A stretch of DNA of 64,000 nucleotides from Parcubacteria group bacterium (GTDB lineage: Bacteria > Patescibacteriota > Minisyncoccia > Minisyncoccales > UBA10102): contig JACQLT010000002.1 of assembly GCA_016203945.1 (NCBI GenBank), forward strand, positions 73,585 to 137,584, in the 5' to 3' direction. Positions 10,557-36,795 of the stretch are shown in pieces; the first letter of the stretch is position 1; each line of letters opens with the position of its first letter. The translations under genes were made by a program, and so were the position numbers. Under the pieces are notes generated by a model that was not told the origin of the DNA, searched no databases, and was given only the letters and a program-made list of their open reading frames with translations.

Positions 10557-10561
10557 GGAGA

Positions 10562-11743: not shown

Positions 11744-11756
11744 ATACTAATAAAGC

Positions 11757-14189: not shown

Positions 14190-14908
14190 TGGACGTATAG
14201 TTCCGCCAATAGTTCCGGAGGGAAATCCTTGCCAATGCGAAACATCGCATCCAGGATTTTTTCATCAAGACCAAGCCCGTCAAGCTGGCTGTTTGAGAGG
14301 GGCTTTAAAAAGATGCCTCCCATACTTTTTACTTTCAGTTTTGCGGCGCGTATATCTTTCTTCAGCGACTTTGCGTCATATACTCTCCTGTGGCCGATCC
14401 GCCTGTCTCTCTCGTTGAGCTCATGGAGATGCTTCAGCATACCGGCCATCACTCCTATCCTGCGATGAAGAGATTGGGCGTTGGGACAGATAATAAAAAT
14501 AGTTCCTTTTTTTGCGAGCCAGCGCCGCGACATGCTGAGCAGACGAACCGGATGTTGAACATGCTCAAGGATATTCACGAGCACAATGCTGTTAAATTTC
14601 TCCCGGGGCTTGAACTCTTCAAAAAGCGTGCATATGAAATCGGCATTGCGAAGGCGCAACTTTTTTGCGTCGGCAATGAGCTTTTGAGAGCCGTCTATGG
14701 CAGTGATGTGTTTGAAGTGCTTGGCAAGATTTTCTGTCATTACGCCTTCTGCGCATCCGACTTCCAATATACGATCGTTGCGAATATGTTCTCTTATGAT
14801 CGCAAAGCGGTACTTCTCCAATCTGACTTCAAAACCTTCCCGCATGGAAAAATGCTTTGCAATATCTGCGAGCCGCTTTTTTTCTGCTTCTTTGCCTTGT
14901 GTTTTCAT
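14177..14908 (-). CDS. class I SAM-dependent methyltransferase
   Basis: Motif I ILEVGCAEG. Confidence 0.7.
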   Translation of the reverse strand: MKTQGKEAEKKRLADIAKHFSMREGFEVRLEKYRFAIIREHIRNDRILEVGCAEGVMTENLAKHFKHITAIDGSQKLIADAKKLRLRNADFICTLFEEFKPREKFNSIVLVNILEHVQHPVRLLSMSRRWLAKKGTIFIICPNAQSLHRRIGVMAGMLKHLHELNERDRRIGHRRVYDAKSLKKDIRAAKLKVKSMGGIFLKPLSNSQLDGLGLDEKILDAMFRIGKDFPPELLAELYVQCTA

Positions 14909-17913: not shown

Positions 17914-17921
17914 AGTAAAAA

Positions 17922-19574: not shown

Positions 19575-20106
19575 CTCTGGTTATTCCATACCACACCTGA
19601 TCGACAAATGCTCCTTTATACAGCAACCGCTCCTTAAACGTACCCTGGTACGAAAGACCCATCTTTTTGTAGTTGAATACGGAAGCGACATTGGGAGCGT
19701 AGGCGCCCGTGGAAATAGAGCGGATTCGAAGCTTCAGAAACGCGAAATCAAACACAAGAGCAATGGCTTCCTGCGCAGCTCCCGTGCCCCAGTACTTCTT
19801 GTTCCCGATAAGATATCCGTAGTTCGCGTATTTGTGCATCGGATGAATGTCATACAGCGTAATGACGCCGATGTGCTTTTTTGTTTTCTTGTCAAATATC
19901 CCCCAAAGAAACTTGGTCTTCTGGTCAAAGCCCCTCACATACGCTCTCTGCGTTGCCAGAGTATGTTTCTTGAAACGCGCCTCAAGAAACTCATTCACCC
20001 CGGGGTCCTTCAGCCAAGAGACATATTCTTGGGTCACATCTTCTGGGAAAAGCGGCTTGAGCTGCGTCTGCCTGCCTTCAAACACGAGGGAACTATTCCT
20101 TGCCAT
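19537..20106 (-). CDS. GNAT family N-acyltransferase
   Basis: GNAT motif A region GYLIGNKKYWGTGAAQEAIALVFDFAF. Confidence 0.7.
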   Translation of the reverse strand: MARNSSLVFEGRQTQLKPLFPEDVTQEYVSWLKDPGVNEFLEARFKKHTLATQRAYVRGFDQKTKFLWGIFDKKTKKHIGVITLYDIHPMHKYANYGYLIGNKKYWGTGAAQEAIALVFDFAFLKLRIRSISTGAYAPNVASVFNYKKMGLSYQGTFKERLLYKGAFVDQVWYGITRDEWLSRRKKLAF

Positions 20107-20341
20107 GGGATTTCATTTTCTTTGTTATCGCTTCTTGGATTGCTGCGAAAGAGACGAGATCTGGAATTTCCCGATCGCCAAAACGCATGCCAAACTCTTC
20201 CTGGAGAGCCATGACAAGACGGAGATGCTGAAGCGAATCCCACTGGGCAATGGTATAAATGGATGCGTTGTCTTTGATGAGAGTGCGATCCACTTCCAAA
20301 GAATCCGCCATAATGCTTTTAATGCGTTCTTCCGTGCTCAT
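20093..20341 (-). CDS. acyl carrier protein
   Basis: About 80 aa with phosphopantetheine-attachment DSL motif (AQWDSLQHLRLVMALQEEFG); start taken at MSTEERIKSIM (ATGA overlap with FkbH gene). Confidence 0.7.
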   Translation of the reverse strand: MSTEERIKSIMADSLEVDRTLIKDNASIYTIAQWDSLQHLRLVMALQEEFGMRFGDREIPDLVSFAAIQEAITKKMKSHGKE

Positions 20342-22122: not shown

Positions 22123-22457
22123 ATGACGAATGCCAAAGCATAATCTTTTACGTGAGCCATGCTTATCTGACAGGCAGGATGGCGGGCCTGCTTTTGCGGC
22201 AAGAATGCAATGGAGGGTTTTCCCGATGCGGATGTTCTGATCTCAACCTGCAGATAGGATACGGGCTTTTCGATCGCTTTGAATGTTGCTTCTTTTGCCG
22301 CAAAGCGCGCGGCAAAATGTTGGAGCGGAAATGCCTTGCTCTTGCAGAAGCGGATCTCTTTTGCGCTAAATACGCGCTTCATAAATTCTTGCTTCTTCAT
22401 TGCCTTGGCAAAATCAGGAAGAAATACGATATCAACGCCGACTCCTAATACAGACAT
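22107..22457 (-). CDS. acpS: holo-ACP synthase (4'-phosphopantetheinyl transferase, AcpS-type)
   Basis: MSVLGVGVDIV N-terminus and ASGKPSI motif typical of AcpS. Confidence 0.7.
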   Translation of the reverse strand: MSVLGVGVDIVFLPDFAKAMKKQEFMKRVFSAKEIRFCKSKAFPLQHFAARFAAKEATFKAIEKPVSYLQVEIRTSASGKPSIAFLPQKQARHPACQISMAHVKDYALAFVICTKQ

Positions 22458-22467
22458 ACGCGTGTGG

Positions 22468-23607
22468 CTATCTTCGATATCGCGCAATGATCTCGCGCAC
22501 TGCCCTGACAACAGCGCGTATTTCTCCCGATATCATCTTGGGAAACAACGGCAGGGTTATCGCCCGCTCATAATACTGTTCAGCAATGGGGAAATCGCCT
22601 TTCTTGTATCCGAATGTTTTTTTATAAAACGGATGGAGGTGAACCGGAATATAGTGCACCTGCACGCCAAGGCCTTTGTTGCGCAACGCTTCAAATATTT
22701 TTCTTCTTCCGGTTTTTAATAATTCCAAGCGCAGTCGGATGGGATACAAATGATACGCAGACCTGGCATACGCTTTCTCGACAGGAAGAATTATCTCTGA
22801 AATATTACGAAACGCTTGGTTATACCGTCGCACGATCTCTCTTCTCGTCTTTACGAACCTATCCAGTTTCTGGAACTGACTGAGGCCCAGGGCGCACTGT
22901 ATGTCAGAAATGCGGTAATTATATCCCGGCCTCTCTATCTCGTAATACCATGCTCCCCTCTCTGGTTTTCTGATAAGTCCGTGGTTTCGAAACGCCTTTA
23001 GAGTTCTGTAGAAATCCTTTCTGTCGGTAACAACCATTCCTCCTTCTCCCGTAGTAATGGCTTTTACCGGATGAAAGCTGAACATGGTCATATCGGAGAA
23101 TGATCCTACTTTCTTGCCTTTGTATTCTGAACCCAAGGCATGGGCGGCATCTTCAATAACCAGAAGATTGTGCTCTCTCGCGATCTTTTTTATGGTGTCC
23201 AGTTCTGCTGGATGACCTGCAAAATCAACCGGAGCCAACGCCTTGGTCCTTTTGGTAATTTTCTTTTTGATTGCTTCTGGGCTGATATTCAACGTATTCT
23301 CTTGAATATCGGCAAAGACGGGCTTTCCTCCGCAATACACAATGGCGTTCGCGGTCGCGGCAAACGTCATGGGAGTGGTGATAACTTCGTCTCCCGGCCC
23401 GATGCGAGCCGCAGCGTATGCCGCGTGCAAAGCTGCGGTTCCCGAAGAAAACGCCACCGCGTACTTTACTCCGCAATACCCGGCTATTGCCTGCTCAAAT
23501 TGCTCGACTCTTGGCCCCTGGGTAATCCAGTCGCTCTTTAATATACGCACAACGGAAGCAATATCGCTCCCGTCTATTTGCTGGTGGCCGTAGGGAATAG
23601 TTTTCAT
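22468..23607 (-). CDS. pseC: UDP-4-amino-4,6-dideoxy-N-acetyl-beta-L-altrosamine transaminase
   Basis: Strong identity to PseC blocks: AHALGSEYKGKKVGSF, FSFHPVKAITTGEGGMVVTD. Confidence 0.85.
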   Translation of the reverse strand: MKTIPYGHQQIDGSDIASVVRILKSDWITQGPRVEQFEQAIAGYCGVKYAVAFSSGTAALHAAYAAARIGPGDEVITTPMTFAATANAIVYCGGKPVFADIQENTLNISPEAIKKKITKRTKALAPVDFAGHPAELDTIKKIAREHNLLVIEDAAHALGSEYKGKKVGSFSDMTMFSFHPVKAITTGEGGMVVTDRKDFYRTLKAFRNHGLIRKPERGAWYYEIERPGYNYRISDIQCALGLSQFQKLDRFVKTRREIVRRYNQAFRNISEIILPVEKAYARSAYHLYPIRLRLELLKTGRRKIFEALRNKGLGVQVHYIPVHLHPFYKKTFGYKKGDFPIAEQYYERAITLPLFPKMISGEIRAVVRAVREIIARYRR

Positions 23608-24587
23608 ATCTCATGCTTCATTGTATCAAGCATCTTTTTCATTTCTTCCTTTGTGATGGCGCGCTCATTCCGGTCGCTCCGATATGAAAAACTGGCGGGG
23701 ACGGGCTTCCCTTCCTTTGAGTTTTCTTCTTTCCAGAAAGAAAATTCGGGAGCAATCACATACATATCATCAAACTCTCTTGTATGTCTTGCCTCTTCTT
23801 CGCAAATGAGCGTTTCGTGAAGCTTCTCTCCGGGGCGAATGCCGACGATTTTTACTTTGGCTTCGGGCGCCACCGTCTGAGCCAGATCAAGAACCCGCAT
23901 GCTCGGAACTTTTGGCACGAACACTTCGCCTCCATGCATGCGCTCAATGCATGTGATGACGAAACGAATGCCTTCTTCGAGCGAGATCCAAAATCGCGTC
24001 ATGCGCTCGTCGGTTACGGTAACTTCCCCTGTTTTGCGCTGTTCCAGGAATAGAGGAATGACAGATCCTGAAGAGGCGATCACGTTGCCGTAGCGAGCCG
24101 AGCTCAGACGCACGTTCTTATGGCTGCCGTATGCGTTTCCCTGAACAAAGAGTTTTTCCGCAACCATCTTTGTGGCCCCATACAAATTTGCGGGCTGCAC
24201 CGATTTATCGGTGCCGATGTTCATCACCAAGGGCACCCGCTGATCAATGGCGGCGTCAATCACATTGACGGCTCCTTCAATGTTGGTGCGTACCGCCTCA
24301 ATCGGATTGTATTCGCACACGGGGATATGCTTTAAGGCTGCGGCATGCACCACCACGTCAACGTCTGCCATAGAACGCTCCAGGCGACTCTTGTCTCGTA
24401 CGTCTCCGAGAAAAAAGCGCAGGCGCCTATCAGAAAACCTGCGCCCCATTTCAACGAGTTGCAGCTCGTTGTTGTCAAAAATACGCACGACCGCAGGGTT
24501 GTGTTCCTTGAGAATAACCTCGGCAAACTCCTGCCCAAAAGAACCCGCCCCTCCCGTTATCAAAATTGTTTTGCCTTGAAAAATCAT
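23604..24587 (-). CDS. pseB: UDP-N-acetylglucosamine 4,6-dehydratase (inverting)
   Basis: KTILITGGAGSFGQEF, RMTRFWISLEEGIRFV, GIRPGEKLHE blocks match FlaA1/PseB. Confidence 0.85.
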   Translation of the reverse strand: MIFQGKTILITGGAGSFGQEFAEVILKEHNPAVVRIFDNNELQLVEMGRRFSDRRLRFFLGDVRDKSRLERSMADVDVVVHAAALKHIPVCEYNPIEAVRTNIEGAVNVIDAAIDQRVPLVMNIGTDKSVQPANLYGATKMVAEKLFVQGNAYGSHKNVRLSSARYGNVIASSGSVIPLFLEQRKTGEVTVTDERMTRFWISLEEGIRFVITCIERMHGGEVFVPKVPSMRVLDLAQTVAPEAKVKIVGIRPGEKLHETLICEEEARHTREFDDMYVIAPEFSFWKEENSKEGKPVPASFSYRSDRNERAITKEEMKKMLDTMKHEI

Positions 24588-24627
24588 GAAATCCGTAGAC
24601 CCTGTATATCACACATGCTCCGCTTTA

Positions 24628-26523
24628 TCAACGAGGTGTCATCCAGCGCTCGTACCACATTTGAAACATGAGCAGGAACCAGAGCTTGTGCGCATCCACT
24701 CCCCTGCCTTCTCTATGGCGCTTGAGCGCGCGCTGAACCGCCCGCTGGTCGAATAACCCGTGCAGCAAAAGACGCTCTGGTGCCAGATACTCCTGAAGAA
24801 AACGGGAAAAATCCTGCCTAAGCCAGGCATGGATGGGAATGCCAAATCCCTGCTTGGGGCGCTCGATGAGTTCCTCTGGGATGTAGCGCGCAAGAATCTT
24901 CTTGAGTAAATATTTGCTTTGTCCCTTTTTAAACTTGATGGAACTTGGAACCCGAGCAACGTACTCGGCTATCTTTTGATCAAGAAATGGCTCTCTCCCT
25001 TCCAGGCCGACTGCCATGGTCGCCCGATCTGCTTTTACCAAGATATCGTCTGGCAGGTACACGCGAAAATCCGCGACTTGCATCTTGGCGAACGCATCAA
25101 GAGAACCAAGCTCATTAAACCCGTAGAAACTGCTGTTGGCATCAAATGGAAATCGAAGAAGCTGCAAAAGCTGCTGGCGCGTCCAGAAGGAGTTGGCGGT
25201 GCGGAATATGTCTTCAAATGAGCGTTCGCGCAGAAGATTTCTTAGTTTATACACCTTATTTTTTAAGTTCGTATGTTTTTTTAAAGAAGGAGAAAAAAGG
25301 GCTAGTCCAACAGCGAGCGAACGAGAGAGCGCTGGCGGCAACGCCCCAAATTTTCTCTGGTACCACTCCAAAGCCCCGTATTTGGGGTATCCGCCAAAAA
25401 GCTCGTCTCCCCCATCTCCGGAAAGAACTACTTTTACCTGTTCTCTCGCAAACTTGGAAACCAGATGTGTCGGGATTGCCGAGCTGTCTCCAAACGGCTC
25501 GTCATACATGTCGGGAAGCTGGGGAATGACGTCGGCTGCCATTTCTTTGGTGCAGTAGAGCTCGTGGTGTTCGGTCCCAAAATATTGAGCTATCTTCTTT
25601 GCGAATGGCGCCTCGTCGTATCCTTTTTCATGGAACCCAATTGTGAACGTCTTTATGGGAGCTCCCGCCTGTTTCTGCAAGAGAGCGGCTATCGTGGAAG
25701 AATCTAGGCCGCCGCTCAAAAATATCCCGACTGGCACGTCTGCCACCATGCGGTAGCGAAACGATTCAAGAAGAATGCCTTCCAATTCTTCTATGATTTC
25801 CTCTTCGGATTTCTGAAAAGGTCCAAGCTGGTAAAAGGAGGCGATGTCCCAGTATCGCACTTCCTTTGAGTTGCCGTGCGTATCAATCTCAAGATAGGAG
25901 CCCGGCTGCAGCTTGAAGGTGTTCTGAAATATAGTATGGGGCGCCGGAATGTAGCCGAGCTGCAGAAACAAAGCAAGCGCTTCGTAATTGATCTCTTTCT
26001 TGAACTCGGGGTGTTTGTGAAGCGCCTTGAGTTCTGAAGCAAAAAGCAAGAGGCCGTTTTTTTGGTAATAGTACAAAGGTTTTACGCCCGCCCGGTCCCT
26101 GCACAAGATGAGTTTGCCGGAGTTGGCATCCCAAATGGCAAAAGCGAACATGCCCCGGAACCTTGCGACACTTTCCATGCCCCATTCTTCATACGCCTCA
26201 AGAATGACTTCTGTGTCCGAGGCGCTCTTAAATTTCCTGCCTCGTTTCTCAAGCTCGCTGCGAACTTCTTGAAAATTATAGATCTCTCCATTGAACGCGA
26301 TCCAAAGAGTTTTCGTTTTGTTTGCCATGGGCTGATGCCCCAGCGAAGACAAGTCAATGATGGCAAGACGCGTATGACCCAGACCGATGCCGTGTTCTTG
26401 AGAAACAAAAACGCCCCGGTCGTCAGGACCCCGATGGCTGAGGCATTCTGCCATGCGCGAGAGCACGCTCTCCTCAAGAAAAGAGCGCTGCCGAGCGTCA
26501 AAAATACCGACAATGCCGCACAT
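24628..26523 (-). CDS. asparagine synthetase B-family glutamine amidotransferase
   Basis: MCGIVGIF Ntn-amidotransferase start, PP-loop SGGLDSS. Confidence 0.85.
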   Translation of the reverse strand: MCGIVGIFDARQRSFLEESVLSRMAECLSHRGPDDRGVFVSQEHGIGLGHTRLAIIDLSSLGHQPMANKTKTLWIAFNGEIYNFQEVRSELEKRGRKFKSASDTEVILEAYEEWGMESVARFRGMFAFAIWDANSGKLILCRDRAGVKPLYYYQKNGLLLFASELKALHKHPEFKKEINYEALALFLQLGYIPAPHTIFQNTFKLQPGSYLEIDTHGNSKEVRYWDIASFYQLGPFQKSEEEIIEELEGILLESFRYRMVADVPVGIFLSGGLDSSTIAALLQKQAGAPIKTFTIGFHEKGYDEAPFAKKIAQYFGTEHHELYCTKEMAADVIPQLPDMYDEPFGDSSAIPTHLVSKFAREQVKVVLSGDGGDELFGGYPKYGALEWYQRKFGALPPALSRSLAVGLALFSPSLKKHTNLKNKVYKLRNLLRERSFEDIFRTANSFWTRQQLLQLLRFPFDANSSFYGFNELGSLDAFAKMQVADFRVYLPDDILVKADRATMAVGLEGREPFLDQKIAEYVARVPSSIKFKKGQSKYLLKKILARYIPEELIERPKQGFGIPIHAWLRQDFSRFLQEYLAPERLLLHGLFDQRAVQRALKRHREGRGVDAHKLWFLLMFQMWYERWMTPR

Positions 26524-26568
26524 AGAGCTAAGTGGACACAGACACAGAATTTCTATATCATATAATCG

Positions 26569-28924
26569 TATGCTCTACAAGAAGGATTGGGGACGCCGTA
26601 TTCTTTTTTTGTGCTTTGCAGTAATTCTTTTTCTCCCCCTATTAGACATCCCCCCTTGGCTCTCTCCGCCCGACTGGGGGAAAGCCATAGTCTTTAGAAT
26701 TGCTGTTTCTCTTTTGTGGATGTATGTTGCATGGACCGTATGCACCGGAAAAAAACGGATAGGAACAATTTCTCTCAAGAGCATACCAGGGCTGCTTATT
26801 ATCGTTCTTGTGTTACAGGTACTGGTGTACTTGCTTGCTGCTGTCTTTTCTCCAGATCCTCTTATGAGTTTTCTGGGAGATCCGATAAGATCCGGGGGTC
26901 TCGTGAATTATGCTTTTCTGGCATCGTTTGTATTTCTCTTGCTCTTCTTCCTGGAATCTGACGACTGGCAGACCGTTATGAAATGGGCTATTTGGGGAGC
27001 AGTTGGAGTAAGCGCCGTAGCCATTGTTCAGTGGCAAGGCCTTCTCCCGGAACTCTTTGTCGCCACCGGCACAAGGCCCACAAGCACCCTTGGAAGCACC
27101 ATGACCCTTGGCCTATTTCTTATTTTGTTTGTATTTCTGTCTCTTACCAATAAAAAGTGGGGCCTCCCGCTTGCCGCGCTCTTTACCTTTGTGATTGCGC
27201 TCACGGAAACAAGGGCGGTATTTCTGGGCTTGGGAATCGGCCTGTTTTTCTTCCTTTTCTGGTATCCGACAAAAGAGAAAGCGCGAGCTCTCTTCATGAA
27301 GTACGTCCTTATAGGAACGCTTCTCTTGGGAGGAGTGTTGCTGCTTGCGGCAAACCTCTCGCTCTCATCCCCGGATCTTCTAAAACGCCTAAAAGTTCCA
27401 AATTTCCAAAACGAACCGCGTTTTGCCGCATGGCAGGTTACGCTTCAGGCTATCAACGCAAGCCCTGTCTTGGGATATGGGCCTGAAAACTTTGCCATCG
27501 GTTTTGACAAATTCTACAATCCCGCGCTTCCCAACCTTAGCAGAGTGCCGGGTTCTGGCGTCACCACGTGGTGGGACCGCGGCCACAACATTCTTTTAGA
27601 CACTGCCATGCAAGGAGGGATAGGAGCCGTTCTTCTTCTCTTGCTGCTCTGGATGCTTCTTTTCTGGGGCCTTCAGAAGGTAAAGAAAGAGAAGGGTGAG
27701 CTTGCGCTTAAGGCTCACGGCCTGCAGGCCGCATTCCTTGGGTATGGGGTGGCAAATCTTTTCAGTTTTGAAACCTTTTCCACCCAGCTCATCTTCTTTA
27801 CTCTTCTGGCTTATTCTTTGCATCTGATTTCTTTACGGAGGGACCTGCCGCCAAAGCGAAGTTCGGGCGAGGCAGGTCCCTCCAAGCTACGAGTGCCCAT
27901 CTTCATACTTGTGGGCTTCGCTTTCCTCTGGTTCAATTGGAATTATACGCTCAAGCCATTGGCTGCGAACGCAAATATTATAGAAGCAAAAGCGCTTGCT
28001 AAAAGCGGCAACTGCCAAGAAGCCCTGCCTCTCGCAGAGAACGCCGTGCGTGGGGCCCCGGGTCCCATGAAATCATACGCTGCGCTTTCTTTGGGAGATA
28101 TTATTTTAGATTGCCAAAGCCAGCTGCCAGACAAACGCCCAGAGTTGGCGCAAAAAGCAATTGAGGCCTTGCAAACAGCAGATGAAAGCCGGCCGCTCTT
28201 TCCAAGAGCATGGATAGCGATGGGGGGCTTCACCAACATATTGCTGGAAACAGCTTCAAGAGAAGGAAACCAGGAAAAAGTGAAGGGGGAAGCTGCAAAT
28301 GCCGATATGTTTTTCAGAAAGGCCCTTGAGTTGAGCCCCAAGCGCCAGGAAACATACATTGAATGGGTAAAAACCTTCTTGATTCAGGGCGATTATGAGG
28401 GGGCTAAAGAAAAAATCGGAGAGTGTCTTTCGCTCAACATCAACTCTGCTCACTGCTGGTTTCTCTTGGCAAGAGCTGAAATTTCTTTGGGGAATGCAGA
28501 GCAGGGATCTCATGCCCTCAAGACAGCTGAACTGCTTGGATACAATCCGACATCAAGACGATCGCTTCTCCAGTTAGCCAATGCGTATCTTGCCTCTCAA
28601 AACTACCAAGCAATGGCAAAGATATACGAAACACTGACATCTTCCAATTACGACCCCGTGCCTCGCGCGTATTATGAGACCCTAATTGCGCTCTATCAAC
28701 AACTCGGCCAAAGAGAAAACATACTGCACGCAGCAGGAAGAATGTATCTTGTCTTTGGGGATTACGAAAAATCGAAGGTCACTGCCAAGGAGTGCATTGC
28801 CTTCAATGCCCAATCTGCCTATTGCTGGTACTTGCTTGGAAAAGCTGAGTCTGCCTTAGGTAATGAAGAAGAAGGAGAAAGGGCAAAGGCGAGAGCCCAG
28901 GAACTCTTTGAAATAAAACAATGA
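26569..28924 (+). CDS. Wzy_C (O-antigen ligase/O-OTase-like) polytopic membrane domain fused to C-terminal TPR repeats
   Basis: Multi-TM N-terminal half with TETRAVFLGLG and periplasmic-loop GHNILLDT motif; TPR-like C-terminal 350 aa. ORF track start 26453 overlaps asnB, so ATG at 26569 used. Confidence 0.7.
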
Positions 28925-31179
28925 AAATACCCCTCCGTACCTTGACTATATCGCTGTTCTGTCTGGCAGCCGCATTGCCCATTGTTTCCACCAATGCGCT
29001 CTTTCACCCGCAGGCATGGGCTCAATCAAGCGTATTTCGGGTCTTGACTGCAGGGCTCGTATCCCTGCTGCTTTTGCAACAGCTGCTGCGACCTTTTGAC
29101 AAAAAAGCGCTGCTTGAGCGCCTTGGTTCAGCAAAAATAGTCCTCATTCCCCTCTCGCTCTTTGCTGTAGTGCTGGCAATCGCAACGCTCTTTTCCCAAG
29201 ATCCGTATTTTAGTTTCTGGGGCACGCCCGCTCGTGGCTGGGGACTACTTAACGACTTTCTCCTCATGCTCTTTGCAGTAGGAGCGTTTCTTTTCCTCTC
29301 TCATGAGGACTGGAAAAAGGTGTGGGGCGTGGCTCTTGCGGCAGGGGTCGGGGTGGCGGGCATTGCCCTGATCCAAACCTTCGGGCTGCTGCCTTCTGTA
29401 TTTAACGCAACGGGTCTCGGAGCTCCCGGCACTCTGGGCAGCTCCATTGTCTTGGGCCTATACCTGGTATTGCTTGCATTTGCGGCTCTTGCCTTGAGAA
29501 AATTTCCGCTTTTTCTATTCTTTGCTTTTGCTGTTGCGCTCACGCTTTCCCGCAGCTCCTGGATTGGATTTGCCGCAGGTATTATATTCTTTCTGGCTTT
29601 CTTTCCTCGAAAACAAGTCCGATGGCGCGCTGCCGCTCTTATTCTGCTGGCGTGCGGAGTGCTTGTACTCCTCATTATAAACCTTGTTGCCCTCCCCTCT
29701 TTTGTAAAGGACATTCCTTTGCTATCTCCTTTATTGTCCCGCGCTTGGCAGGATCTCCAGTGGGAGAATGTTTTTGACCTGTCGCGCATCTTGGCTTGGC
29801 AAATTGAACTCAAAGCTCTGGCAGAAAAACCCCTCCTTGGCTGGGGACCCTATAACTCTTCCATCGGGTTCAACAAATACTTTGACCCGATTGTCACCCA
29901 GGCGCACGCTCGCCCCTATTTTGATACTTCCCACAACGAATTTCTCGATATTGCCCTAGGGTCGGGATTCTTGGGTCTTGCTGCCTATCTTTGGTTCATA
30001 GGGGCGTTTCTGTGGAAACTACAGAAATCGGCGCTTGAGAATAGGTGGCAGGCGAGAATGGTGCAAGCCGGTATCATAGGGGGGCATGCCGCGCTCTTTT
30101 TCTTTCCCTTTATGTTCTCCACGCATCTGCTGTTTTTCCTCCTCATTGCATACGGACTGCATCTGTCCGCTGCGGCTCCACCTTTGCCAATGACTGGAGG
30201 CGGAACGAAAACAGAGCTTCCTTCAAAAAAGCTTGCCGTATTCGGAGGAGCATCTCTCCTACTGGTGTCCTTTGCTTTCTTTTTCGCGATACAGCCCCTT
30301 GCATGGAACAGAACCCTGAACGTTGCGGCACAGCAGGCAGATCGAGGGAAGTGTTCCTTGGCGCTTCCCGCGGCAGAAGAAGTCCTTGAGCGCGGCAAGA
30401 ACAGCTTCTTTTCATACTGGATACATCTCAAATATGTAGAGGCTGTGGATTCCTGTATTGGGAGTCAGGAGGAAGGGGTTCAGCAGATATTATCTGAAAA
30501 AGCTGCCGCTGCCCTCAATGAAGAGCTGCTTGTTCGGCCCAAAGAACCAAGGACCTGGATATTGCTTGGAGGATATTTCAATAATTTGGCCGCTTTTTCC
30601 AAAGACTCTCAAGAACGCTCGGACTTTCTCAACCAGGCAAGAACTGCCTTTGAAAAAGCGAGGGGATTAAGCCCAAGCCGCTATGAAACCTTTTTAGAAT
30701 GGACAAGAACCGAAATGCTTTCAAAAAACTATGAGGCGGCGAAACAAAAGGCAGCTCAATGCATTATGCTCAACCCGAACTCGCAAAACTGCTGGATTAG
30801 ATTATCTCTTGCCCAATTCGCGCTCAAGAATACCGAGGGCGGGCTGCACGCCTTAGACAAGGCGCGCGAGGGGAATATTACGATAGCAACAACGATACAA
30901 AGCGAACAGGTTCTCATAGAAATCTTGAGGCAAACACTTGCTTTGCCGCAGAAACCCTACCAGGATGTGGTATTTTTATTGAGCACCCTTATCGACCTCA
31001 ACCCAAACAACCCGCAGTACTACGCTTCCCTTGCCGCCGTGTACCTTGAGCTTGGAGAATATGGAAATGCGGGACAAGCTGCACTCGCGGTGCTTGAGCT
31101 GCAGCCGGAAAACGAAGAAGCAATACGGCAATTCTTCCAGCAACTCCCTAAAGAATTCCGCCCGGACAGATTCAAATAA
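28921..31179 (+). CDS. second Wzy_C + TPR paralog
   Basis: LTLSRSSWIGF, SHNEFLDIALGSG loop motif, TPR C-terminus; ATGA overlap with preceding paralog. Confidence 0.7.
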   Translation: MKIPLRTLTISLFCLAAALPIVSTNALFHPQAWAQSSVFRVLTAGLVSLLLLQQLLRPFDKKALLERLGSAKIVLIPLSLFAVVLAIATLFSQDPYFSFWGTPARGWGLLNDFLLMLFAVGAFLFLSHEDWKKVWGVALAAGVGVAGIALIQTFGLLPSVFNATGLGAPGTLGSSIVLGLYLVLLAFAALALRKFPLFLFFAFAVALTLSRSSWIGFAAGIIFFLAFFPRKQVRWRAAALILLACGVLVLLIINLVALPSFVKDIPLLSPLLSRAWQDLQWENVFDLSRILAWQIELKALAEKPLLGWGPYNSSIGFNKYFDPIVTQAHARPYFDTSHNEFLDIALGSGFLGLAAYLWFIGAFLWKLQKSALENRWQARMVQAGIIGGHAALFFFPFMFSTHLLFFLLIAYGLHLSAAAPPLPMTGGGTKTELPSKKLAVFGGASLLLVSFAFFFAIQPLAWNRTLNVAAQQADRGKCSLALPAAEEVLERGKNSFFSYWIHLKYVEAVDSCIGSQEEGVQQILSEKAAAALNEELLVRPKEPRTWILLGGYFNNLAAFSKDSQERSDFLNQARTAFEKARGLSPSRYETFLEWTRTEMLSKNYEAAKQKAAQCIMLNPNSQNCWIRLSLAQFALKNTEGGLHALDKAREGNITIATTIQSEQVLIEILRQTLALPQKPYQDVVFLLSTLIDLNPNNPQYYASLAAVYLELGEYGNAGQAALAVLELQPENEEAIRQFFQQLPKEFRPDRFK

Positions 31180-31203: not shown

Positions 31204-31244
31204 GAAATCAAAGGCCGCCCCATGTGAGGCGGCTCTTTGATTTC
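31204..31244. terminator. bidirectional hairpin between convergent genes
   Basis: GAAATCAAAGGCCGCC-CCATGTGA-GGCGGCTCTTTGATTTC near-perfect inverted repeat; U-rich arms on both strands. Confidence 0.4.
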
Positions 31245-31303: not shown

Positions 31304-34300
31304 TTACGGGTTCACCAAGCTGCCTGCGTAGATGTCTGGCCTGAAGATGATGGTTCCTCTGCGGTAGGCGTTTGAGGTTCCGTCAACGCCGAACTCCACA
31401 TTGGAATCAGCAACATCGCTCAGCCACAGCTGAATCTGGTCGCCGTCAGTGTCAAGCTCGGTCGTGTCGCTGTAGATCAGCAAGGTCTTGGTCTGGCCTG
31501 CTGGCACCCTCAGCTCAGTTGTCGCGAAGGTAAAGGTTACGCTTTCGCTGGTGGACTCGTCTACCTGACCTTCTTCACCCGTACCAACTGCCGAAATTGC
31601 GTTGCTGTATATGGTGCCGTCCGGATCCTGCAAGGTGAAGGTCTCTTCTGTGCCGTCAGACGTGCTGATGGACTGTGTGATGTTCACCACCAGCTTGTTG
31701 CCGTCTCCGTTCTGGAAGGTGACATCGTCCGAACCCACAGCAGTCACGTCAAACTTGGCAAGAAGCGTGTTTGCTGAAGGAATGAGGTTGCCCGAAGGCG
31801 TGGTAGAGTTGACCGTGAACTTCGGATACGCGCGGAACATCCGGTGCGTGTTGGAAGAACCTGTCGGGGCGGCATCGCTTACCGTAGTGCCAGACCCTTT
31901 GCCCGTGGTATCCACGTCACGAATGGCAACTCCGGTCGCAACGTCGTTTTGCGCTGCTGCCGACGTGTTGCTGAAGAAGTCCGCTTTCACCGTGATCAAT
32001 TGGTAGCCGTTTGACGGAATCGTCAATGTGCCATCGTCAAACGTAATATCACTAAGTGACTGAGGCGAGGCTCCTCCCGCAGATACCGACTTGAGCAAGG
32101 TTGAGCCGTTGTACAGGTGCAGGGTTTGAATGAAGTTGCTCCCCGATACCTGAAGGCTTATCTCGTCAAGGTCAAGGTCTTCCACGGCGTCCGACGCAAG
32201 CCGGAATATGCCAATGGTGTTGCCTGTTGTCGAGGCCGCAAAGAGACTGCTGGACGGCTGTGAGGAGTCAACTGACGTTGTCAGCGTGCCTCCTGTCACC
32301 ACAGACATGACCTGACCAGCTCCTGAGCGGGTTTCGGTAATGTCGTTTCCGGTATCAGCTCCTGTCGCGGTTGTCGCGGTTTCAGCGACCTGGTGAGCAT
32401 CGGTGAGATTGCCGGAAGCTCCGGTGTCGGCGTTGGCCTTAAGGTCGGCCACCACGGCAAGCTCCATAGTAGTTCCTTTCTTGACAATCAAGGTCTGCGT
32501 CAAGGTGAAGGCAATGGTGTCTGCCGTGCCGTCTGTGGTGCTGTCATAGCTCGTGGTGTTAGACACCTTTGTTTCGTAGACATCTCCCCTTGAGCTTGAG
32601 GCAGTCGTCAGGTTTGCCCAAATCTCCACATTGATCATGTCGTCAGCCGGAGCTCCTGTGCCAGGGTCGTTCTGTATGGTGATGGAACTCACCTGCACGT
32701 CTTCTCCGGAAGCTCCCGCGTCAAGCGCAAGCTTGGCAAAGATGAAGTCACTCGTACCAACTGCCACGTCTCGCGCAGCCGGGGATACCAGAGTATTCAC
32801 TACCAAGGCTCCCGCTTTTACGGTCTGCGTATTGCCAGCAGCCGCACTGGCGGTCGGAGTTGCGGTAATGGAGTTGTTGCTCGTCATTCCGGTCACCGTA
32901 AGATCGGTGTCTGGATCAGCAATTGCCGCTTGAATGGTGTCGCCTGCAGAGGTAGCAGTCGCGATTCTTCCTTTCACCGTGTACTTGTGCACGCCTACAG
33001 GAACAATGATGGTGTCGGTGTAGGTTACCGATACCTCGTAGGTGGTGCCGTTCGCGGTGTAATCCGTAGTGCTCGGATCCAAGGGACCTGCTACCAGAGT
33101 GCCGTTCTCGTCAAACAGCTTCACTGCCGTAAGTTCGGCGTCAAGCATTGTACCCAGGTCAAAGGAAATTCTGACCGAGGTAAGCTTTACCGACTCACCA
33201 ATCGCGTTGAGGTCCCACGTTGCCAAGTTCTGGTCTGCTGCCTGGGCAATGTTGCCCGTGGGAGCAGTGGTAGAGGACTTGGAAACGCTCAGGGCTCCCG
33301 AGTTGATGGTCTGGTTGTTTGCAGCCAACCCGTCGTTGGCATTGGTCCAGTCAGCAGCGTCGTTGCCGTCCGGAGTGATGTACATGCCGTAGGTGTTGCC
33401 CTTTGTGGATATTAACACATCACTGCCGTCCATGAGGTCGGCGTTTATTGTCAAACTGGGGCCGTCCACGACGTCAAGCATGATCTTGAATCTTCGGCTG
33501 TCTCCCTTGGCAATCACCATGTTGAGGTTTGACCACGAGGCCTTGCCTTCTCCAGACCATTGCGTGGTCCCGAGCGACTGGCTCTTCGATACGTCGTACA
33601 GCTCAATGTTTGTGGTGTCGTCAAGAGAAGCAGAACCCGACTCCATCACGGTAATCTGCTCTAATGTCACGTCTTCTGTTGACCCTACCGTCACTTTGAA
33701 GGCGTTCACCGTAACATCGGTGTCGCCAACATCGGGCGTGGAGTCAACGAGCGCGCCGTCTTCCTGCACGTCAACCGTGCCGATGGTCAAGGCAACAGTG
33801 GTAAAGTCGTTCCCTTTTATGGGGAAGGCTCCGGTCACCGTTGCTGATCCGGCGCTGATGTCTGCTGCAGAGGCAATACCCATTGCCACGGTCTTCGCTC
33901 CTGCGGTTCCGTCAACAATTCCTACGCGAATGAAAAACGCCTTGGAAGTGTTGGCAGGAATCTTGAGGTTCGTGGAGAAGGTCATCTGGGCTCTGCTGTT
34001 TGTGTTCAGGGAACCCAAGCTGCCTACCCTCACTCCGTCCTCGTCAAGGATTCTGATGTTTTCCACGTCCGCATTTGCGGTCAACCCATAACGGGTGAGC
34101 CAAATGGTGGAAATAGCAACATCGGATGCTCCTGCGCTCAGGAAGAACTTCGTTACGTTAACGTTTCCTGCGTCTGCCACAGTAGCTGAAGCTGGCGTGT
34201 CAGAAGCCAAGGATACGCTTAGCGTTCCAGCTTGAGCCGGAGGCGTTGGCGCTCCTGGCGTGCTGGGCGTGCTTGGCGTGCCGGGCGTGCTTGGAGCAGT

Positions 34301-34732
34301 TCCTGCCACGGCAGTGTACTTTGCCCGAGAAATCGGTCCGAAGTATCCTACCGCGGGGCTCACTCCGTTCGCAGCCTGCCATGCTGCTACTGCTGCTTGC
34401 GTGCGGGAACCGTAAAAAGTGGTCTCAGAGCCAGGAGATCCTGCGCCCGAAGAAGCCAGCTGGTGTCCCGCACCATTCAGGTACTGTTGCAAGCACATTA
34501 CGTCATCACCCGAAGAAACTCCTACGTAGAGGCTGCGGGTAAAGGTGCAAGCGGTTGCGCCAGCTCCTGATCCTTGCTGTGCCTGAAGCTGTTGAAGCTG
34601 GACCAGCAAGGCGTCAATCTGCGCTTGCAATTCTGCTATTGTCACTGCGCCTGCGGGCATTGGAGCTACCATGCTCACGGCAATGCTCGCTGCGGCTGCA
34701 GTGGTAATTGCTTTCTTTAAGAATTTACTCAT
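31304..34732 (-). CDS. large secreted cell-surface (S-layer-like) protein
   Basis: Signal peptide MSKFLKKAITTAAAASIAVSMVAPMPAGA. Coiled segment. PG_binding_1-like block LQQYLNGAGHQL...TQAAVAAWQAANGV. Linker APSTPGTPSTPSTPGAPTPP. About 900 aa of Thr/Ser/Val/Asp-rich repeats, no Cys. Confidence 0.7.
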   Translation of the reverse strand: MSKFLKKAITTAAAASIAVSMVAPMPAGAVTIAELQAQIDALLVQLQQLQAQQGSGAGATACTFTRSLYVGVSSGDDVMCLQQYLNGAGHQLASSGAGSPGSETTFYGSRTQAAVAAWQAANGVSPAVGYFGPISRAKYTAVAGTAPSTPGTPSTPSTPGAPTPPAQAGTLSVSLASDTPASATVADAGNVNVTKFFLSAGASDVAISTIWLTRYGLTANADVENIRILDEDGVRVGSLGSLNTNSRAQMTFSTNLKIPANTSKAFFIRVGIVDGTAGAKTVAMGIASAADISAGSATVTGAFPIKGNDFTTVALTIGTVDVQEDGALVDSTPDVGDTDVTVNAFKVTVGSTEDVTLEQITVMESGSASLDDTTNIELYDVSKSQSLGTTQWSGEGKASWSNLNMVIAKGDSRRFKIMLDVVDGPSLTINADLMDGSDVLISTKGNTYGMYITPDGNDAADWTNANDGLAANNQTINSGALSVSKSSTTAPTGNIAQAADQNLATWDLNAIGESVKLTSVRISFDLGTMLDAELTAVKLFDENGTLVAGPLDPSTTDYTANGTTYEVSVTYTDTIIVPVGVHKYTVKGRIATATSAGDTIQAAIADPDTDLTVTGMTSNNSITATPTASAAAGNTQTVKAGALVVNTLVSPAARDVAVGTSDFIFAKLALDAGASGEDVQVSSITIQNDPGTGAPADDMINVEIWANLTTASSSRGDVYETKVSNTTSYDSTTDGTADTIAFTLTQTLIVKKGTTMELAVVADLKANADTGASGNLTDAHQVAETATTATGADTGNDITETRSGAGQVMSVVTGGTLTTSVDSSQPSSSLFAASTTGNTIGIFRLASDAVEDLDLDEISLQVSGSNFIQTLHLYNGSTLLKSVSAGGASPQSLSDITFDDGTLTIPSNGYQLITVKADFFSNTSAAAQNDVATGVAIRDVDTTGKGSGTTVSDAAPTGSSNTHRMFRAYPKFTVNSTTPSGNLIPSANTLLAKFDVTAVGSDDVTFQNGDGNKLVVNITQSISTSDGTEETFTLQDPDGTIYSNAISAVGTGEEGQVDESTSESVTFTFATTELRVPAGQTKTLLIYSDTTELDTDGDQIQLWLSDVADSNVEFGVDGTSNAYRRGTIIFRPDIYAGSLVNP

Positions 34733-34814
34733 TTATTGTTTGTTTGGTTAATTTACGAAATGTATTATGTGTATAGGTTAATCCTATAACACATGCCGAC
34801 CTTTGTATTCGGTT

Positions 34815-35603
34815 TCAATCTCCACTCTTCGTGGAGCCAACCTTCAAAAGATATTCCAACGCCGTCTCGTACTCTCCTGCCTCGGAAGCCGCGACTGCTT
34901 TTGAGACCAGCGCTGCCTGCTCTTCATTGAGCGTCCGAGTTTCCAAATCTTTCAGCTCGCTCTCTACCACCACCCTAGTGGCTTCGGCCAAGCTGTCATT
35001 CTCCCCTTCCCCGATACTTGTTCCGAGCACCCGTTCCAGTTTAGATCTCTCTTTCTGAAGCTCCAGCAAAACTTTTCCCGCCTGGAGCGCGACTCGCGGC
35101 TCCTGATCAACCAGCCCTGGCAATGCCTGCGACACCTCAGAAACCCTGCTCTGGTATCCCTTGATTGCGGCCGCAAGATCCTTAGTTCGGTTCTGCGCAG
35201 TCACCTGCTTTAACTCATCTAATCTGCGCTGGGCAAGCTCCAGCTGCACGAACGCGCGATCTTTGCTCGGAGAAAGCGCGAACTCCACCTGTTCCCTAGT
35301 TGACTTTACGGAGTACAAAGGGTCTCCTGGCAAGCTGGAAGAAGAAATCTGCAGTGCGAGGCTTACTCCCACCACAAGCATGAGGCCTGCAAACGCAAAA
35401 GCCGGTTTCTCAAAGTATCTTGTTGCCAGCACTAACTCTCCCAGTATACGGGAGGCAAGAGACCCCTGCAATATCCTTGGTTCGACCAAGCTATTCACAC
35501 CTATCTGGCTCATCACCTGGCTTTTAACGGAAAAAACCCAGTCCTGTCTGGGTGTAATGCTCTTCAAAAGGTTTAGCTTCTCTATGGTCTGACGATGTTC
35601 CAT
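34815..35603 (-). CDS. DUF5667-like single-pass membrane protein, probable anti-sigma factor
   Basis: One TM (FAFAGLMLVVGVSLAL), coiled C-terminal region; immediately downstream of ECF sigma gene. Confidence 0.4.
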   Translation of the reverse strand: MEHRQTIEKLNLLKSITPRQDWVFSVKSQVMSQIGVNSLVEPRILQGSLASRILGELVLATRYFEKPAFAFAGLMLVVGVSLALQISSSSLPGDPLYSVKSTREQVEFALSPSKDRAFVQLELAQRRLDELKQVTAQNRTKDLAAAIKGYQSRVSEVSQALPGLVDQEPRVALQAGKVLLELQKERSKLERVLGTSIGEGENDSLAEATRVVVESELKDLETRTLNEEQAALVSKAVAASEAGEYETALEYLLKVGSTKSGD

Positions 35604-35647: not shown

Positions 35648-36130
35648 TTACACTAATCTCTCCTTCAATGCCTCTAGCGCTCTATGGACTCCTACCCTCA
35701 CATTTGTTTCAGTTTTGCCGGTAATTTGGGCTATCTCGGATATCGAAAGCTCGTCTAAATAGCGCCAGATGACCAGGTTTTGATACTCGTCATTGAGCTC
35801 AGCAAGAGCCTTCTGTACCTGTTCCATATCCGAGCTTACGGCTAGCGTATCGGCAAAATGGGAATCTTCCGCTATATCAAGCACATTGCCCTCTAAAGAG
35901 ACCGTGGAAACCTGCTTTTTCCGATAGTGGTCTGCTATGACGTTCCGGGCAATACCATACAGAAAAGCCCTATCATTGTCAATGCGGGAACTGTTGAGTT
36001 GTTTCCAGAAACGCAAGAACACCTCAGAAGACAAATCCTCGGCAAGATCCCTGGAGCTCACCTTCAGGTAGCAGAAGCGGTAGATGCTGGCAACGTGTTC
36101 GTCGTATACTTTACTGAACCTTTCTTTCAT
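35648..36130 (-). CDS. RNA polymerase sigma-70 factor, ECF subfamily
   Basis: Region 2 (FLRFWKQL...YGIARNVIADHYRK) and region 4 HTH (LSISEIAQITGKTETNVRVGVHRA). Confidence 0.8.
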   Translation of the reverse strand: MKERFSKVYDEHVASIYRFCYLKVSSRDLAEDLSSEVFLRFWKQLNSSRIDNDRAFLYGIARNVIADHYRKKQVSTVSLEGNVLDIAEDSHFADTLAVSSDMEQVQKALAELNDEYQNLVIWRYLDELSISEIAQITGKTETNVRVGVHRALEALKERLV

Positions 36131-36156: not shown

Positions 36157-36795
36157 CTATCTCTGTCCTACTATTCCTAACACTTTTTCCACAGAAACTC
36201 CTGTTCCGGCACTGATTCTATAAAATATATCATTCCATTCCCCTTCCCGGATCACAAGGTTGCGCTTGAGCAGATCATCCAGATCCCGCCTCAGGGTGCG
36301 CTTGGTAACCTCGGGAAGGAGCTTTTTGAGCTCCCAGACCTGAACTTTTTCTTTGTACCTTAGGATCTCAAGCATCTTCTCCTGCCGGCTGTTAAGCTCC
36401 TTGGGATTAGACACAGAAGAGGTCTGCCTGAGCGAAGGTGCCCGCTGAAGCGAAGTTCGGGTCAAAAACCTTCGCACTTTAGCGTATTCTCGCTCCAGAA
36501 CAACGAAGTTTTTATCGTTAATAACCCGCAGGCGCTTTACGCTCTGAAGAAAGCCCAAAAGCATTTGCAGCTCAGCTGAAGCGCGGATAATCGTTTCGTT
36601 CTTTTCTTCGGGATTTTGGTTCCTGGTCAGGAAAATGAGATGTATGAGAAGACGGCTTGCCGATTCCTCAATCTTGGAACGTAGAACAGAGCCCCCGGAA
36701 AGAAGCTCGGTTACTCGGTACAACCCGAACGTAAGTCGCATAAAAAAGTCCGAGTCCATAAACTTGAATGTACCAAAACCAAGATACTCGGTCAA
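36157..36795 (-). CDS. hypothetical regulator: N-terminal four-helix-bundle-like domain plus C-terminal DeoR-like winged HTH
   Basis: C-terminal SRQEKMLEILRYKEKVQVWELKKLLPEVTKRTLRRDLDDL resembles DeoR HTH; N-terminal half resembles the four-helix-bundle family. Confidence 0.35.
   Translation of the reverse strand: MTEYLGFGTFKFMDSDFFMRLTFGLYRVTELLSGGSVLRSKIEESASRLLIHLIFLTRNQNPEEKNETIIRASAELQMLLGFLQSVKRLRVINDKNFVVLEREYAKVRRFLTRTSLQRAPSLRQTSSVSNPKELNSRQEKMLEILRYKEKVQVWELKKLLPEVTKRTLRRDLDDLLKRNLVIREGEWNDIFYRISAGTGVSVEKVLGIVGQR

Follow-up and report, generated by a model that had tools for sequence, protein, structure and literature searches.

A predicted S-layer protein gene of a Parcubacteria group bacterium and its conserved regulatory and glycosylation-type neighbourhood

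The Patescibacteria, or candidate phyla radiation (CPR), make up a large share of bacterial diversity and are mostly uncultured, and their envelope is the surface that comes into contact with hosts and phages. A 64,000-nucleotide stretch of contig JACQLT010000002.1 from a Parcubacteria group bacterium (assembly GCA_016203945.1, positions 73,585 to 137,584; the whole stretch is called the window here) carries on its minus strand a gene for a large, apparently secreted protein with a peptidoglycan (PG)-binding domain and a long repetitive C-terminal part. Does this protein form a surface layer (S-layer), and how might its production and decoration be arranged? The answer that we favour, with a probability of about 80%, is that the gene encodes the main S-layer protein (SLP), that is, the surface lattice protein, of a Parcubacteria/Paceibacteria-type bacterium. 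This assignment coincides with a published computational prediction for the family and is not new; the domain anatomy, family membership and conserved neighbourhood come from the present analysis, and the lattice geometry and high expression come from the literature on homologues.

31304..34732, minus strand: predicted SLP gene, 1142 amino acids (aa); open reading frame (ORF), identical NCBI protein and homology to A0A1G2EN61

The ORF starts with ATG, and its coordinates, strand and length of 1142 aa reproduced those given in an earlier sequence-only reading of this DNA. The identical NCBI entry, MBI4122987.1, is labelled 'peptidoglycan-binding protein [Parcubacteria group bacterium]'. By sequence, the protein is an ordinary member of the Patescibacteria S-layer family with six immunoglobulin (Ig)-like domains, because it aligned end to end with A0A1G2EN61 in BLASTP (44% identity over 1175 columns, 815 bits, residues 5-1136 covered). 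The same full-length homology supported the proposal of the sequence-only reading that this is an S-layer or cell-envelope protein anchored to PG in a monoderm-like CPR envelope. A0A1G2EN61 is the founding member of the family, found through the scan of a Nealsonbacteria genome and described in the supplement of a 2024 bioRxiv preprint on S-layer lattice predictions across prokaryotes (10.1101/2024.05.28.596244); among our own loci, the ORF at L015:10001-13396 (Nealsonbacteria RIFOXYB1_FULL_40_15) is exactly UniRef100_A0A1G2EN61, 1131 aa. The published model of this founding family has six Ig-like assembly domains in a left-handed spiral, which form hexagonal spiral pyramids in a p6 lattice of 18.5 nm with the C-terminal domain as the pyramid tip, and confident hexamer and trimer interfaces were predicted for the homologues (10.1101/2024.05.28.596244). 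The preprint reports numerous homologues across the Patescibacteria classes and p6 pyramids in cryo-electron microscopy of CPR cells; its Table S2 gives A0A1G2EN61 (1131 aa) beside others of 1173-1274 aa, and Kaiserbacteria A0A0G1WWP5, Doudnabacteria A0A1F5NRV7 and Parcubacteria GMX59286.1 are further members listed there (10.1101/2024.05.28.596244). PG-binding-domain homologues were within the five most expressed unknown genes of three cultured Paceibacteria (PMC10936435; also the preprint supplement).

The family is large and uniform in length. A word-indexed search returned 591 relatives, and the best 120 of these 591 were nearly all 1100-1280 aa long with the whole query covered, and of 1.84 billion cluster representatives searched exhaustively with HMMER, 592 clusters (50% identity) matched at E <= 1e-30 and 3359 at E <= 1e-10. 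Scanning one genome per GTDB species with a 33-sequence alignment as query resulted in 36 loci from Wildermuth-, Nealson-, Staskawicz-, Nomura-, Kaiser-, Falkow- and Magasanikbacteria and other Patescibacteria; a few loci labelled Desulfobacteraceae or Gammaproteobacteria were taken to be putatively mis-binned contigs. In distant relatives the six-domain body was constant and the N-terminal module was replaced, with modules differing by lineage (L025/L027/L029, L031/L032/L034/L037 and L003/L033/L035). Some relatives carried a short PG_binding_1 together with Cys-rich 'PAGCxSASGFS' repeats, and two modules foreign to Pfam were present in Falkow-, Magasanikbacteria and related lineages; the sole relative with a match to the S-layer homology (SLH) domain had an SLH-like segment at L024:9299-10000, which stayed below threshold (18.7 bits, gathering score 20.8). 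Swapped anchors on a constant assembly body are the typical pattern of S-layer proteins, and by this analogy the replacement of the anchor on a kept six-domain body would count for the S-layer reading.

Three loci showed variations around the SLP gene itself. A 656-aa SLP-like paralogue (L031:14051-16021) and a 335-aa ORF with PG_binding_1 (L004:11848-12855; 327 aa as called in the record) each lie just 3' of the main SLP gene, and these shorter paralogues are possibly minor lattice components. In the closest relative from the genome collection (L012:2246-5613) the SLP gene is split into 217 + 905 aa by a frameshift or an assembly error.

How is the protein built? A monomer model of the window protein was made with AlphaFold2 (AF2), with an alignment of 104 homologues as input. 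It had a mean predicted local distance difference test score (pLDDT) of 89.6, and disorder was restricted to aa 1-30, 50-59 and 145-165. Together with profile searches and repeat statistics the model divides the protein as follows.

34646..34732, minus strand: signal-peptide-like N-terminus, aa 1-29, with AGA|V cleavage motif (sequence features, family consensus, pLDDT <50)
34568..34645, minus strand: conserved Gln/Leu-rich amphipathic helix, aa 30-55, helix at 32-51 (DSSP on the AF2 model; mean identity 0.44 over 104 homologues)
34304..34555, minus strand: PG_binding_1 three-helix anchor domain, aa 60-143 (Pfam match, AF2 helices, profile match to 1lbu)
34229..34303, minus strand: disordered Pro/Thr-rich linker, aa 144-168 (pLDDT 38-56; length and composition variable in homologues)
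33782..34228, minus strand: Ig-like domain 1, aa 169-317 (repeat statistics; beta-rich, pLDDT >90)
33299..33781, minus strand: Ig-like domain 2, aa 318-478 (repeat statistics, AF2; the most conserved domain, mean identity 0.45)
32813..33298, minus strand: Ig-like domain 3, aa 479-640 (repeat statistics, AF2, conservation)
32291..32812, minus strand: Ig-like domain 4, aa 641-814 (repeat statistics, AF2, conservation)
31829..32290, minus strand: Ig-like domain 5, aa 815-968 (repeat statistics, AF2; less conserved, mean identity 0.30)
31307..31828, minus strand: Ig-like domain 6, aa 969-1142 (repeat statistics, AF2, conservation; the pyramid tip in the published lattice model of homologues)

The N-terminus, MSKFLKK-AITTAAAASIAVSMVAP-MPAGA|V, is arranged like a Sec signal peptide, with n, h and c parts: the basic n-region MSKFLKK is followed by an h-region of 17 residues rich in Ala, Ile and Val, and an AxA site (AGA|V) comes after residue 29. 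'PxxAxAxT' is retained at the position of the cleavage site in the family consensus. The signal peptide of the window protein, read from these motifs, is putative; a three-domain homologue has a signal peptide score of 0.998 in the table of Kuroda et al. (PMC10936435). The short coiled segment, PG_binding_1-like domain and Pro/Thr (PT) linker that the sequence-only reading had placed after it were all recovered: the first as the helix at aa 32-51 (pLDDT about 72-74), the second by a Pfam match at aa 74-125 (E 6.3e-7, 29.9 bits, above the gathering score of 23), with helices at 76-87, 109-121 and 133-143 in the model, and the third as the run APSTPGTPSTPSTPGAPTPP within aa 144-168, disordered in the model. 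When the family profile was compared with PDB sequences it matched only 1lbu, an archetypal PG-binding domain (E 0.005). Besides PG_binding_1 the window protein had no Pfam match above threshold and no NCBIfam match. No SLH domain was detected in it at E <= 0.1 with Pfam, no LPxTG-like sorting motif was present (the C-terminus reads ...IYAGSLVNP), and there was no C-terminal transmembrane (TM) segment. Over the 104 homologues the helix and the PG-binding domain had an identity to the query of 0.44-0.48, on par with the first three Ig domains. The linker was unconserved (0.15) and 6-69 aa long, mostly rich in Pro/Thr/Ser/Gly/Ala; some homologues have poly-Glu there, and others a mini-module with four Cys. 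The whole protein holds just two Cys, at positions 62 and 80. A conserved C62-C80 disulfide was considered and rejected, as C80 is kept in 75 of the 104 homologues and the C62 column is gappy. The mature protein, with 113.9 kDa, an isoelectric point (pI) of 4.1, 49% hydrophobic residues and two Cys, matches the generic chemistry of S-layer proteins, for which 40-170 kDa, pI 4-6, 40-60% hydrophobic residues and few sulfur-containing residues are given (PMC4232325).

The C-terminal 973 residues (aa 170-1142) contain 14.1% T, 11.0% A, 10.2% S, 8.8% D, 8.7% G and 8.3% V and no Cys. The sequence-only reading had described about 900 aa of low-complexity, Thr/Ser-rich, Cys-free beta repeats; the composition and the repeats stood, whereas the low complexity did not, as the region, although biased, holds 3.4-3.9 bits per 60-aa window and consists of six divergent Ig-like domains. 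A recurrent motif at the unit starts, 'G(T/A)L.V...', splits it into six units of 149-174 aa each. Smith-Waterman comparison of unit against unit gave z up to 8.0 relative to composition-preserving shuffles; in 6 of the 15 pairs the observed score was not matched by any of 200 shuffles. Repeat detection and structure prediction, both named as checks in the earlier reading, thus yielded six units by repeat statistics and, in place of disorder, confident beta-sandwiches, the six beta-rich blocks being mostly at pLDDT >90. The absence of Cys from the six-domain region is shared by only 23 of the 104 homologues and is no family trait. Identity to the query fell from 0.41-0.45 in domains 1-3 to 0.30 in domains 5-6, and this drop, as we see it, agrees with an exposed C-terminal tip as in the published model.

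Taken as an S-layer subunit, the protein would be exported by the Sec route and cleaved after Ala29, and its N-terminal helix and PG_binding_1 three-helix bundle would hold non-covalently to the cell's own PG. The flexible Pro/Thr linker of roughly 25 aa would cross the wall, and the six Ig-like beta-sandwich domains (aa 169-1142, about 100 kDa, pI 4.1) would self-assemble into a p6 lattice of hexameric spiral pyramids, with the C-terminal domain outermost, as modelled for the 44%-identical homologues.

Several observations weigh against this reading. The lattice of the family is an AlphaFold-multimer prediction on homologues, the window protein being modelled as a monomer, and the expression evidence comes from homologues in other organisms. 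The inter-domain geometry of our model was of moderate confidence (predicted template modelling score 0.57). In the Foldseek comparison of the model with the PDB the matches were generic Ig and macroglobulin (MG) arrays throughout, with TM-scores (template modelling) of at most 0.2, and no solved S-layer protein was among the matches listed, which included PrgB Ig-like domains, antigen I/II C123, alpha-2-macroglobulin, complement and integrin legs. The lattice constant measured on CPR cells, 13 nm, is closer to the three-domain relatives than to the six-domain proteins with 18.5 nm (10.1101/2024.05.28.596244).

Could the protein instead serve to attach to another cell? As a host-attachment adhesin it would grip the host wall with its PG-binding domain and use the Ig-like array as a stalk in episymbiotic attachment or parasitism, with no lattice. 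The Ig-like adhesin stalks PrgB and antigen I/II C123 are among the best Foldseek matches, and the C-terminal domains evolve fastest, as in host-interaction proteins. The layout argues otherwise: the PG-binding domain is N-terminal, adjoins the putative signal peptide and is followed by the linker, as in a self-anchor, relatives carry other wall-anchor-like modules instead, including the SLH-like one, and the extreme expression of homologues, the conserved length and the exact number of six domains suit a structural lattice subunit. Methanogenic archaea, moreover, are not known to have murein, which weighs against an adhesin that grips the host wall in this way. Such archaea were the hosts in the study of Kuroda et al. 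2024, who viewed the highly expressed PG-binding-domain homologues as possible host-cell attachment proteins (PMC10936435). We therefore consider a pure adhesin unlikely, bearing in mind that the two roles are not exclusive and that an S-layer can mediate contact too. Slightly less likely still is a surface protein that is anchored in the wall and carries several Ig domains but builds no lattice, for example a fibrillar spacer, a capsule-like coat or a protease trap of the alpha-2-macroglobulin type. In its favour are the MG-domain arrays of alpha-2-macroglobulin and complement among the Foldseek matches (E 1e-11 to 1e-14) and the fact that the lattice was modelled on homologues. Against it stand TM-scores of about 0.1, indicating single-domain resemblance only, the lack of any Cys in aa 170-1142, which excludes a CxEQ thioester, the absence of an LPXTG sortase signal and of a C-terminal TM segment, and the confident hexamer and trimer interfaces of the homologues (10.1101/2024.05.28.596244).

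With the S-layer reading preferred, the next question is how the gene might be controlled. Three genes lie upstream of it on the same strand.

34815..35603, minus strand: DUF5667 single-pass membrane protein, 262 aa, putative anti-sigma factor (Pfam DUF5667 E 1.8e-11; TM segment at aa ~64-88)
35648..36130, minus strand: extracytoplasmic function (ECF)-type sigma-70 factor, 160 aa (Sigma70_r2 and r4_2; TIGR02937 83.8 bits, cut-off 42.9)
36157..36795, minus strand: regulator with a C-terminal DeoR-type helix-turn-helix (HTH) and an uncharacterised N-terminal half, 212 aa (HTH_DeoR 26.3 bits, gathering score 21)

For the neighbourhood counts, profile hidden Markov models made from the window neighbours were run against the ORFs of the 36 loci, of which 28 distinct ones had at least 3 kb upstream. 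The ECF sigma gene was found upstream of the SLP gene, on the same strand, in 21 of the 28 loci, and the DeoR-like regulator was also found in 21/28. DUF5667 directly followed the sigma gene in every sigma-bearing locus (21/21), with gaps of mostly 1-190 nucleotides (nt) and one overlap. The full pattern of regulator, sigma, DUF5667 and SLP occurred in the window and in most Paceibacteria-type genomes, regulator and SLP only in Kaiserbacteria and likewise in Sungbacteria, and sigma, DUF5667 and SLP only in Falkow- and Magasanikbacteria; L024 was the sole locus with neither regulator, sigma nor DUF5667. In Ca. Yanofskyibacterium the same order precedes a short three-domain SLP (00353, DeoR-HTH; 00352, ECF sigma; 00351, DUF5667; 00350, SLP), with day-14 expression values of 10.4, 7.6, 12.5 and 16.7, respectively (PMC10936435). 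The higher value for 00350 indicates that a far stronger expression signal of its own drives the SLP gene, rather than simple read-through from the cassette. Six other loci (L014, L016, L019, L020, L022, L039) encode large proteins with Lamin Tail Domains (LTD; 537-1560 aa) shortly upstream of the regulator-sigma-DUF5667-SLP cassette, and an LTD protein is also encoded near the SLP gene in L004.

The sequence-only reading had proposed an ECF sigma/anti-sigma pair here. The sigma factor, which has regions 2 and 4 only, bore this out; the other half of the pair depends on strict pairing and topology, no anti-sigma domain being recognised. The DUF5667 protein has a conserved LxxLKxIxPxxxW motif in an N-terminus of about 30 aa, one TM segment (KPAFA..., aa about 64-88) and then an all-helical extracytoplasmic part. 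It had no Pfam match to an anti-sigma domain and no zinc motif; its model, aa 1-60 included, was of low confidence (pLDDT 65.6) and matched no solved fold (best E 0.09), and its sequence matched nothing in the PDB. From the layout and the strict pairing with sigma we infer that it is a putative anti-sigma factor. No mention of DUF5667 was found in the literature searched, nor were Patescibacteria, S-layer and anti-sigma found together in it, and sigma factors are unmentioned in the text and supplement of 10.1101/2024.05.28.596244. The conserved regulator/ECF sigma/DUF5667 cassette beside SLP genes is apparently unreported. Judged from this context, the co-inherited cassette probably tunes S-layer production to the state of the envelope.

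A short conserved element lies between the cassette and the SLP gene.

34796..34803, minus strand: conserved AAGGTCGG box, candidate operator or promoter element (GGTCG core 69 nt upstream of the ATG)

In 19 of 22 loci GGTCG, usually as aAAGGTCGa, lay no more than 150 nt before the SLP start codon, where 4.4% were expected from a background of 0.30 per kb per strand (binomial p about 2e-23), and a relaxed form occurred no more than 250 nt upstream in 12 of 15 further loci of the other two neighbourhood groups (p about 5e-11); these p-values overstate independence, as the loci are related to one another. The AAGGTCGA box was placed at -41 to -112 relative to the SLP start codon, and apart from it the intergenic DNA upstream of SLP genes was unalignable. 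In several loci a terminator-like hairpin lies 3' of the DUF5667 gene, ahead of the box. The box was nearly absent upstream of the DeoR-like (1/21), ECF (1/25) and DUF5667 (1/26) genes, giving no sign of autoregulation, and it was not enriched across the whole window (8 matches, 4.5 expected). No further promoter element with a constant spacing to the box rose above the level of shuffles. The box was present both in loci with no adjacent sigma gene and in loci with no regulator. Given this distribution, the missing fixed-distance partner and the near absence before the regulator genes, the box is no obvious bipartite ECF or sigma-70 promoter and is not assignable to either regulator. It may mark a strong promoter region that belongs to the SLP gene itself, and its presence upstream of SLP genes is apparently unreported. 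Between box and ATG the leaders (34733-34795, minus strand, in the window, and those of other loci) are A-rich and have no GGAGG-type ribosome-binding site or GGAGG-like Shine-Dalgarno sequence, although SLP genes probably have the highest expression of all genes. In the window leader, the weak hairpin that follows the box (dG -10.9 kcal/mol, z -1.74) was not significant, and no Rfam RNA family was found near the SLP gene.

Is the SLP also decorated? The sequence-only reading had noted convergence of the gene with Wzy_C-tetratricopeptide repeat (TPR) genes, and two such genes indeed run towards it on the plus strand, next to a sugar cluster.

28921..31179, plus strand: Wzy_C membrane protein with C-terminal TPR, 752 aa, candidate O-oligosaccharyltransferase, convergent with the SLP gene (Wzy_C E 2.5e-20 and TPR families)
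26453..28924, plus strand: second Wzy_C + TPR paralogue, 823 aa, its stop overlapping the start of the next gene (Wzy_C E 9.6e-19 and TPR)
31213..31234, no strand assigned: GC-rich hairpin between the convergent genes (terminator-like on both strands)
866..26523, minus strand: sugar-modification and nonulosonic-acid biosynthesis cluster, possible glycan supply (Pfam scans)

A Wzy_C-TPR homologue was found no more than 6 kb downstream of the SLP gene in 14 of the 28 loci. TPR families matched at aa 600-735 of the Wzy_C-TPR protein, which in comparison with PDB sequences matched TPR proteins only, and counting its TM helices by hydropathy was too coarse to tell on which side of the membrane the TPR domain lies. 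Wzy_C is carried by the predicted S-layer O-oligosaccharyltransferases WsaB and WsfB, as by PilO and PglL, and a C-terminal TPR is present in WsfB and PglL as well; the S-layer glycosylation (slg) cluster of Paenibacillus alvei also includes the asparagine-synthase homologue wsfA (PMC2943079). The sugar cluster of roughly 25 kb encodes two NeuB, a CMP-sugar cytidylyltransferase, a PseB-like dehydratase, two DegT aminotransferases, an asparagine-synthase homologue, GT2 and methyltransferases. The two NeuB-family nonulosonic-acid synthase genes are separate (866-1993 and 4468-5517, both minus strand) and have near them an APH-type kinase, a PAPS-reductase-like protein, a TylF O-methyltransferase and an FkbH-like protein; this content suggests a heavily modified nonulosonic acid. 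The asparagine-synthase homologue (24628-26523, minus strand) stands back to back with the Wzy_C-TPR gene at 26453-28924 (plus strand), mirroring wsfA/wsfB of Paenibacillus alvei (PMC2943079). As the first-start ORFs of this pair overlap by ~70 nt, one of the two start codons is probably further in.

By analogy with these systems, the Wzy_C-TPR genes and the nonulosonic-acid cluster make the SLP, a likely glycoprotein substrate in the sequence-only reading, a plausible one from context, which the convergent Wzy_C-TPR enzymes would O-glycosylate. Other observations point away from this. Wzy_C enzymes can also ligate or polymerise non-protein glycans, the PT linker is unconserved in the family, and in the SLP neither the Bacteroidota motif D[ST][AILVMT] nor NxS/T sequons were enriched. 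Pfam PglL_A was not detected in the Wzy_C proteins at E <= 0.1; PilO likewise has no PglL_A/PglL_B motifs, so this absence does not exclude O-oligosaccharyltransferase activity. On balance we put O-glycosylation of the window SLP at roughly even odds. Glycosylation of the six-Ig family is undiscussed in the text and supplement of 10.1101/2024.05.28.596244, and the slg-like neighbourhood of the SLP gene, with Wzy_C + TPR proteins of WsfB architecture and the adjoining nonulosonic-acid cluster, is apparently unreported.

The mechanisms that we infer for the cassette, the AAGGTCGA box and the slg-like neighbourhood come from context. A more far-reaching proposal, which we hold as tentative and rather doubtful as a whole, is that in many Patescibacteria the SLP gene is the output of a dedicated, co-inherited envelope-sensing circuit made of the DeoR-like HTH protein, the ECF sigma factor, DUF5667 as a new class of anti-sigma factor and the AAGGTCGA cis-element, and that the lattice protein is O-glycosylated with nonulosonic-acid-containing glycans by the adjacent Wzy_C-TPR enzymes. 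If true, this would be the first description in the CPR of a system that regulates and glycosylates an S-layer. The added value of the present analysis, which is modest, lies in the conserved regulatory cassette, the cis box and the glycosylation-type neighbourhood. Through them the control and decoration of the CPR S-layer become directly testable questions, and DUF5667, with no published function in the literature searched, gains a concrete candidate role.

Other features of the window lie beyond the cassette. The ORF-poor region at 36.8-38.0 kb, between the cassette and an LTD gene, holds a 115-aa ORF (37084-37431, plus strand) with a MraZ match of 28 bits (gathering score 23), and 'TTTTGTCAA' motifs are repeated near 36815, 37030 and 37510 on the minus strand. 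The LTD gene (38028-40082, plus strand) encodes a 684-aa protein with three Lamin Tail Domains (E 2.5e-31). A family-5 solute-binding protein (45284-47242, plus strand) has an inserted PG_binding_1 at aa 403-443 (E 6e-7) and seems to be a second extracellular protein of the window that uses PG binding as its anchor. A tRNA gene (47259-47342, plus strand; Rfam, 54 bits) overlaps the first-start ORF of RNase J (47265-49043), so that the true RNase J start must be further downstream.

How does the locus compare with known systems? The sigma-DUF5667 pair resembles SigW-RsiW and SigV-RsiV in that a two-domain sigma factor is directly followed by a protein that spans the membrane once, its short N-terminus being cytoplasmic and a further domain extracytoplasmic. 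It differs from them in that DUF5667 has no recognised anti-sigma domain, no zinc motif and no match to a solved structure, and in that no autoregulatory copy of the box found upstream of the SLP precedes the sigma operon. The Bacillota S-layer glycoproteins with slg clusters, Paenibacillus alvei SpaA (WsfA/WsfB) and Geobacillus stearothermophilus SgsE (WsaB), likewise combine an N-terminal wall anchor with a multidomain assembly region and neighbouring genes for a Wzy_C(+TPR) O-oligosaccharyltransferase and an asparagine-synthase homologue (PMC2943079), glycosylation being putative for the window protein. In those systems, however, SLH domains and a secondary cell-wall polymer take the place of the PG_binding_1 anchor, and the assembly region has no sequence similarity to that of the window protein. 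The S-layer glycoprotein of Haloferax volcanii (csg), a glycoprotein with six Ig-like domains in a spiral, also forms hexagonal lattices (10.1101/2024.05.28.596244). It is archaeal, with a C-terminal lipid anchor in contrast to the N-terminal PG anchor here, and its domain orientation is reversed relative to the window family, in which the tip is C-terminal; no sequence relationship of csg to the window protein was detected, and it was absent among the Foldseek matches listed. Closer are the three-domain short SLPs of Yanofskybacteria (GMX57981.1, 692 aa, identical to PMX_810_sub_00350) and Nealsonbacteria DGGOD1a (UMX47672.1), which share the PG-binding anchor, Ig-like assembly domains, very high expression and the upstream order of DeoR, ECF sigma and DUF5667, and differ in having three instead of six Ig-like domains and a predicted lattice constant of 13.5 nm instead of 18.5 nm. 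From the six-Ig-domain Patescibacteria SLP family the window protein shows no architectural difference, apart from a linker that is PT-rich here and a 4-Cys module in A0A1G2EN61: it falls in the same length class (1142 aa, compared with 1131-1274 aa) and its parts follow one another in the same way, from a putative signal peptide through helix, PG-binding domain and linker to the six Ig-like domains.

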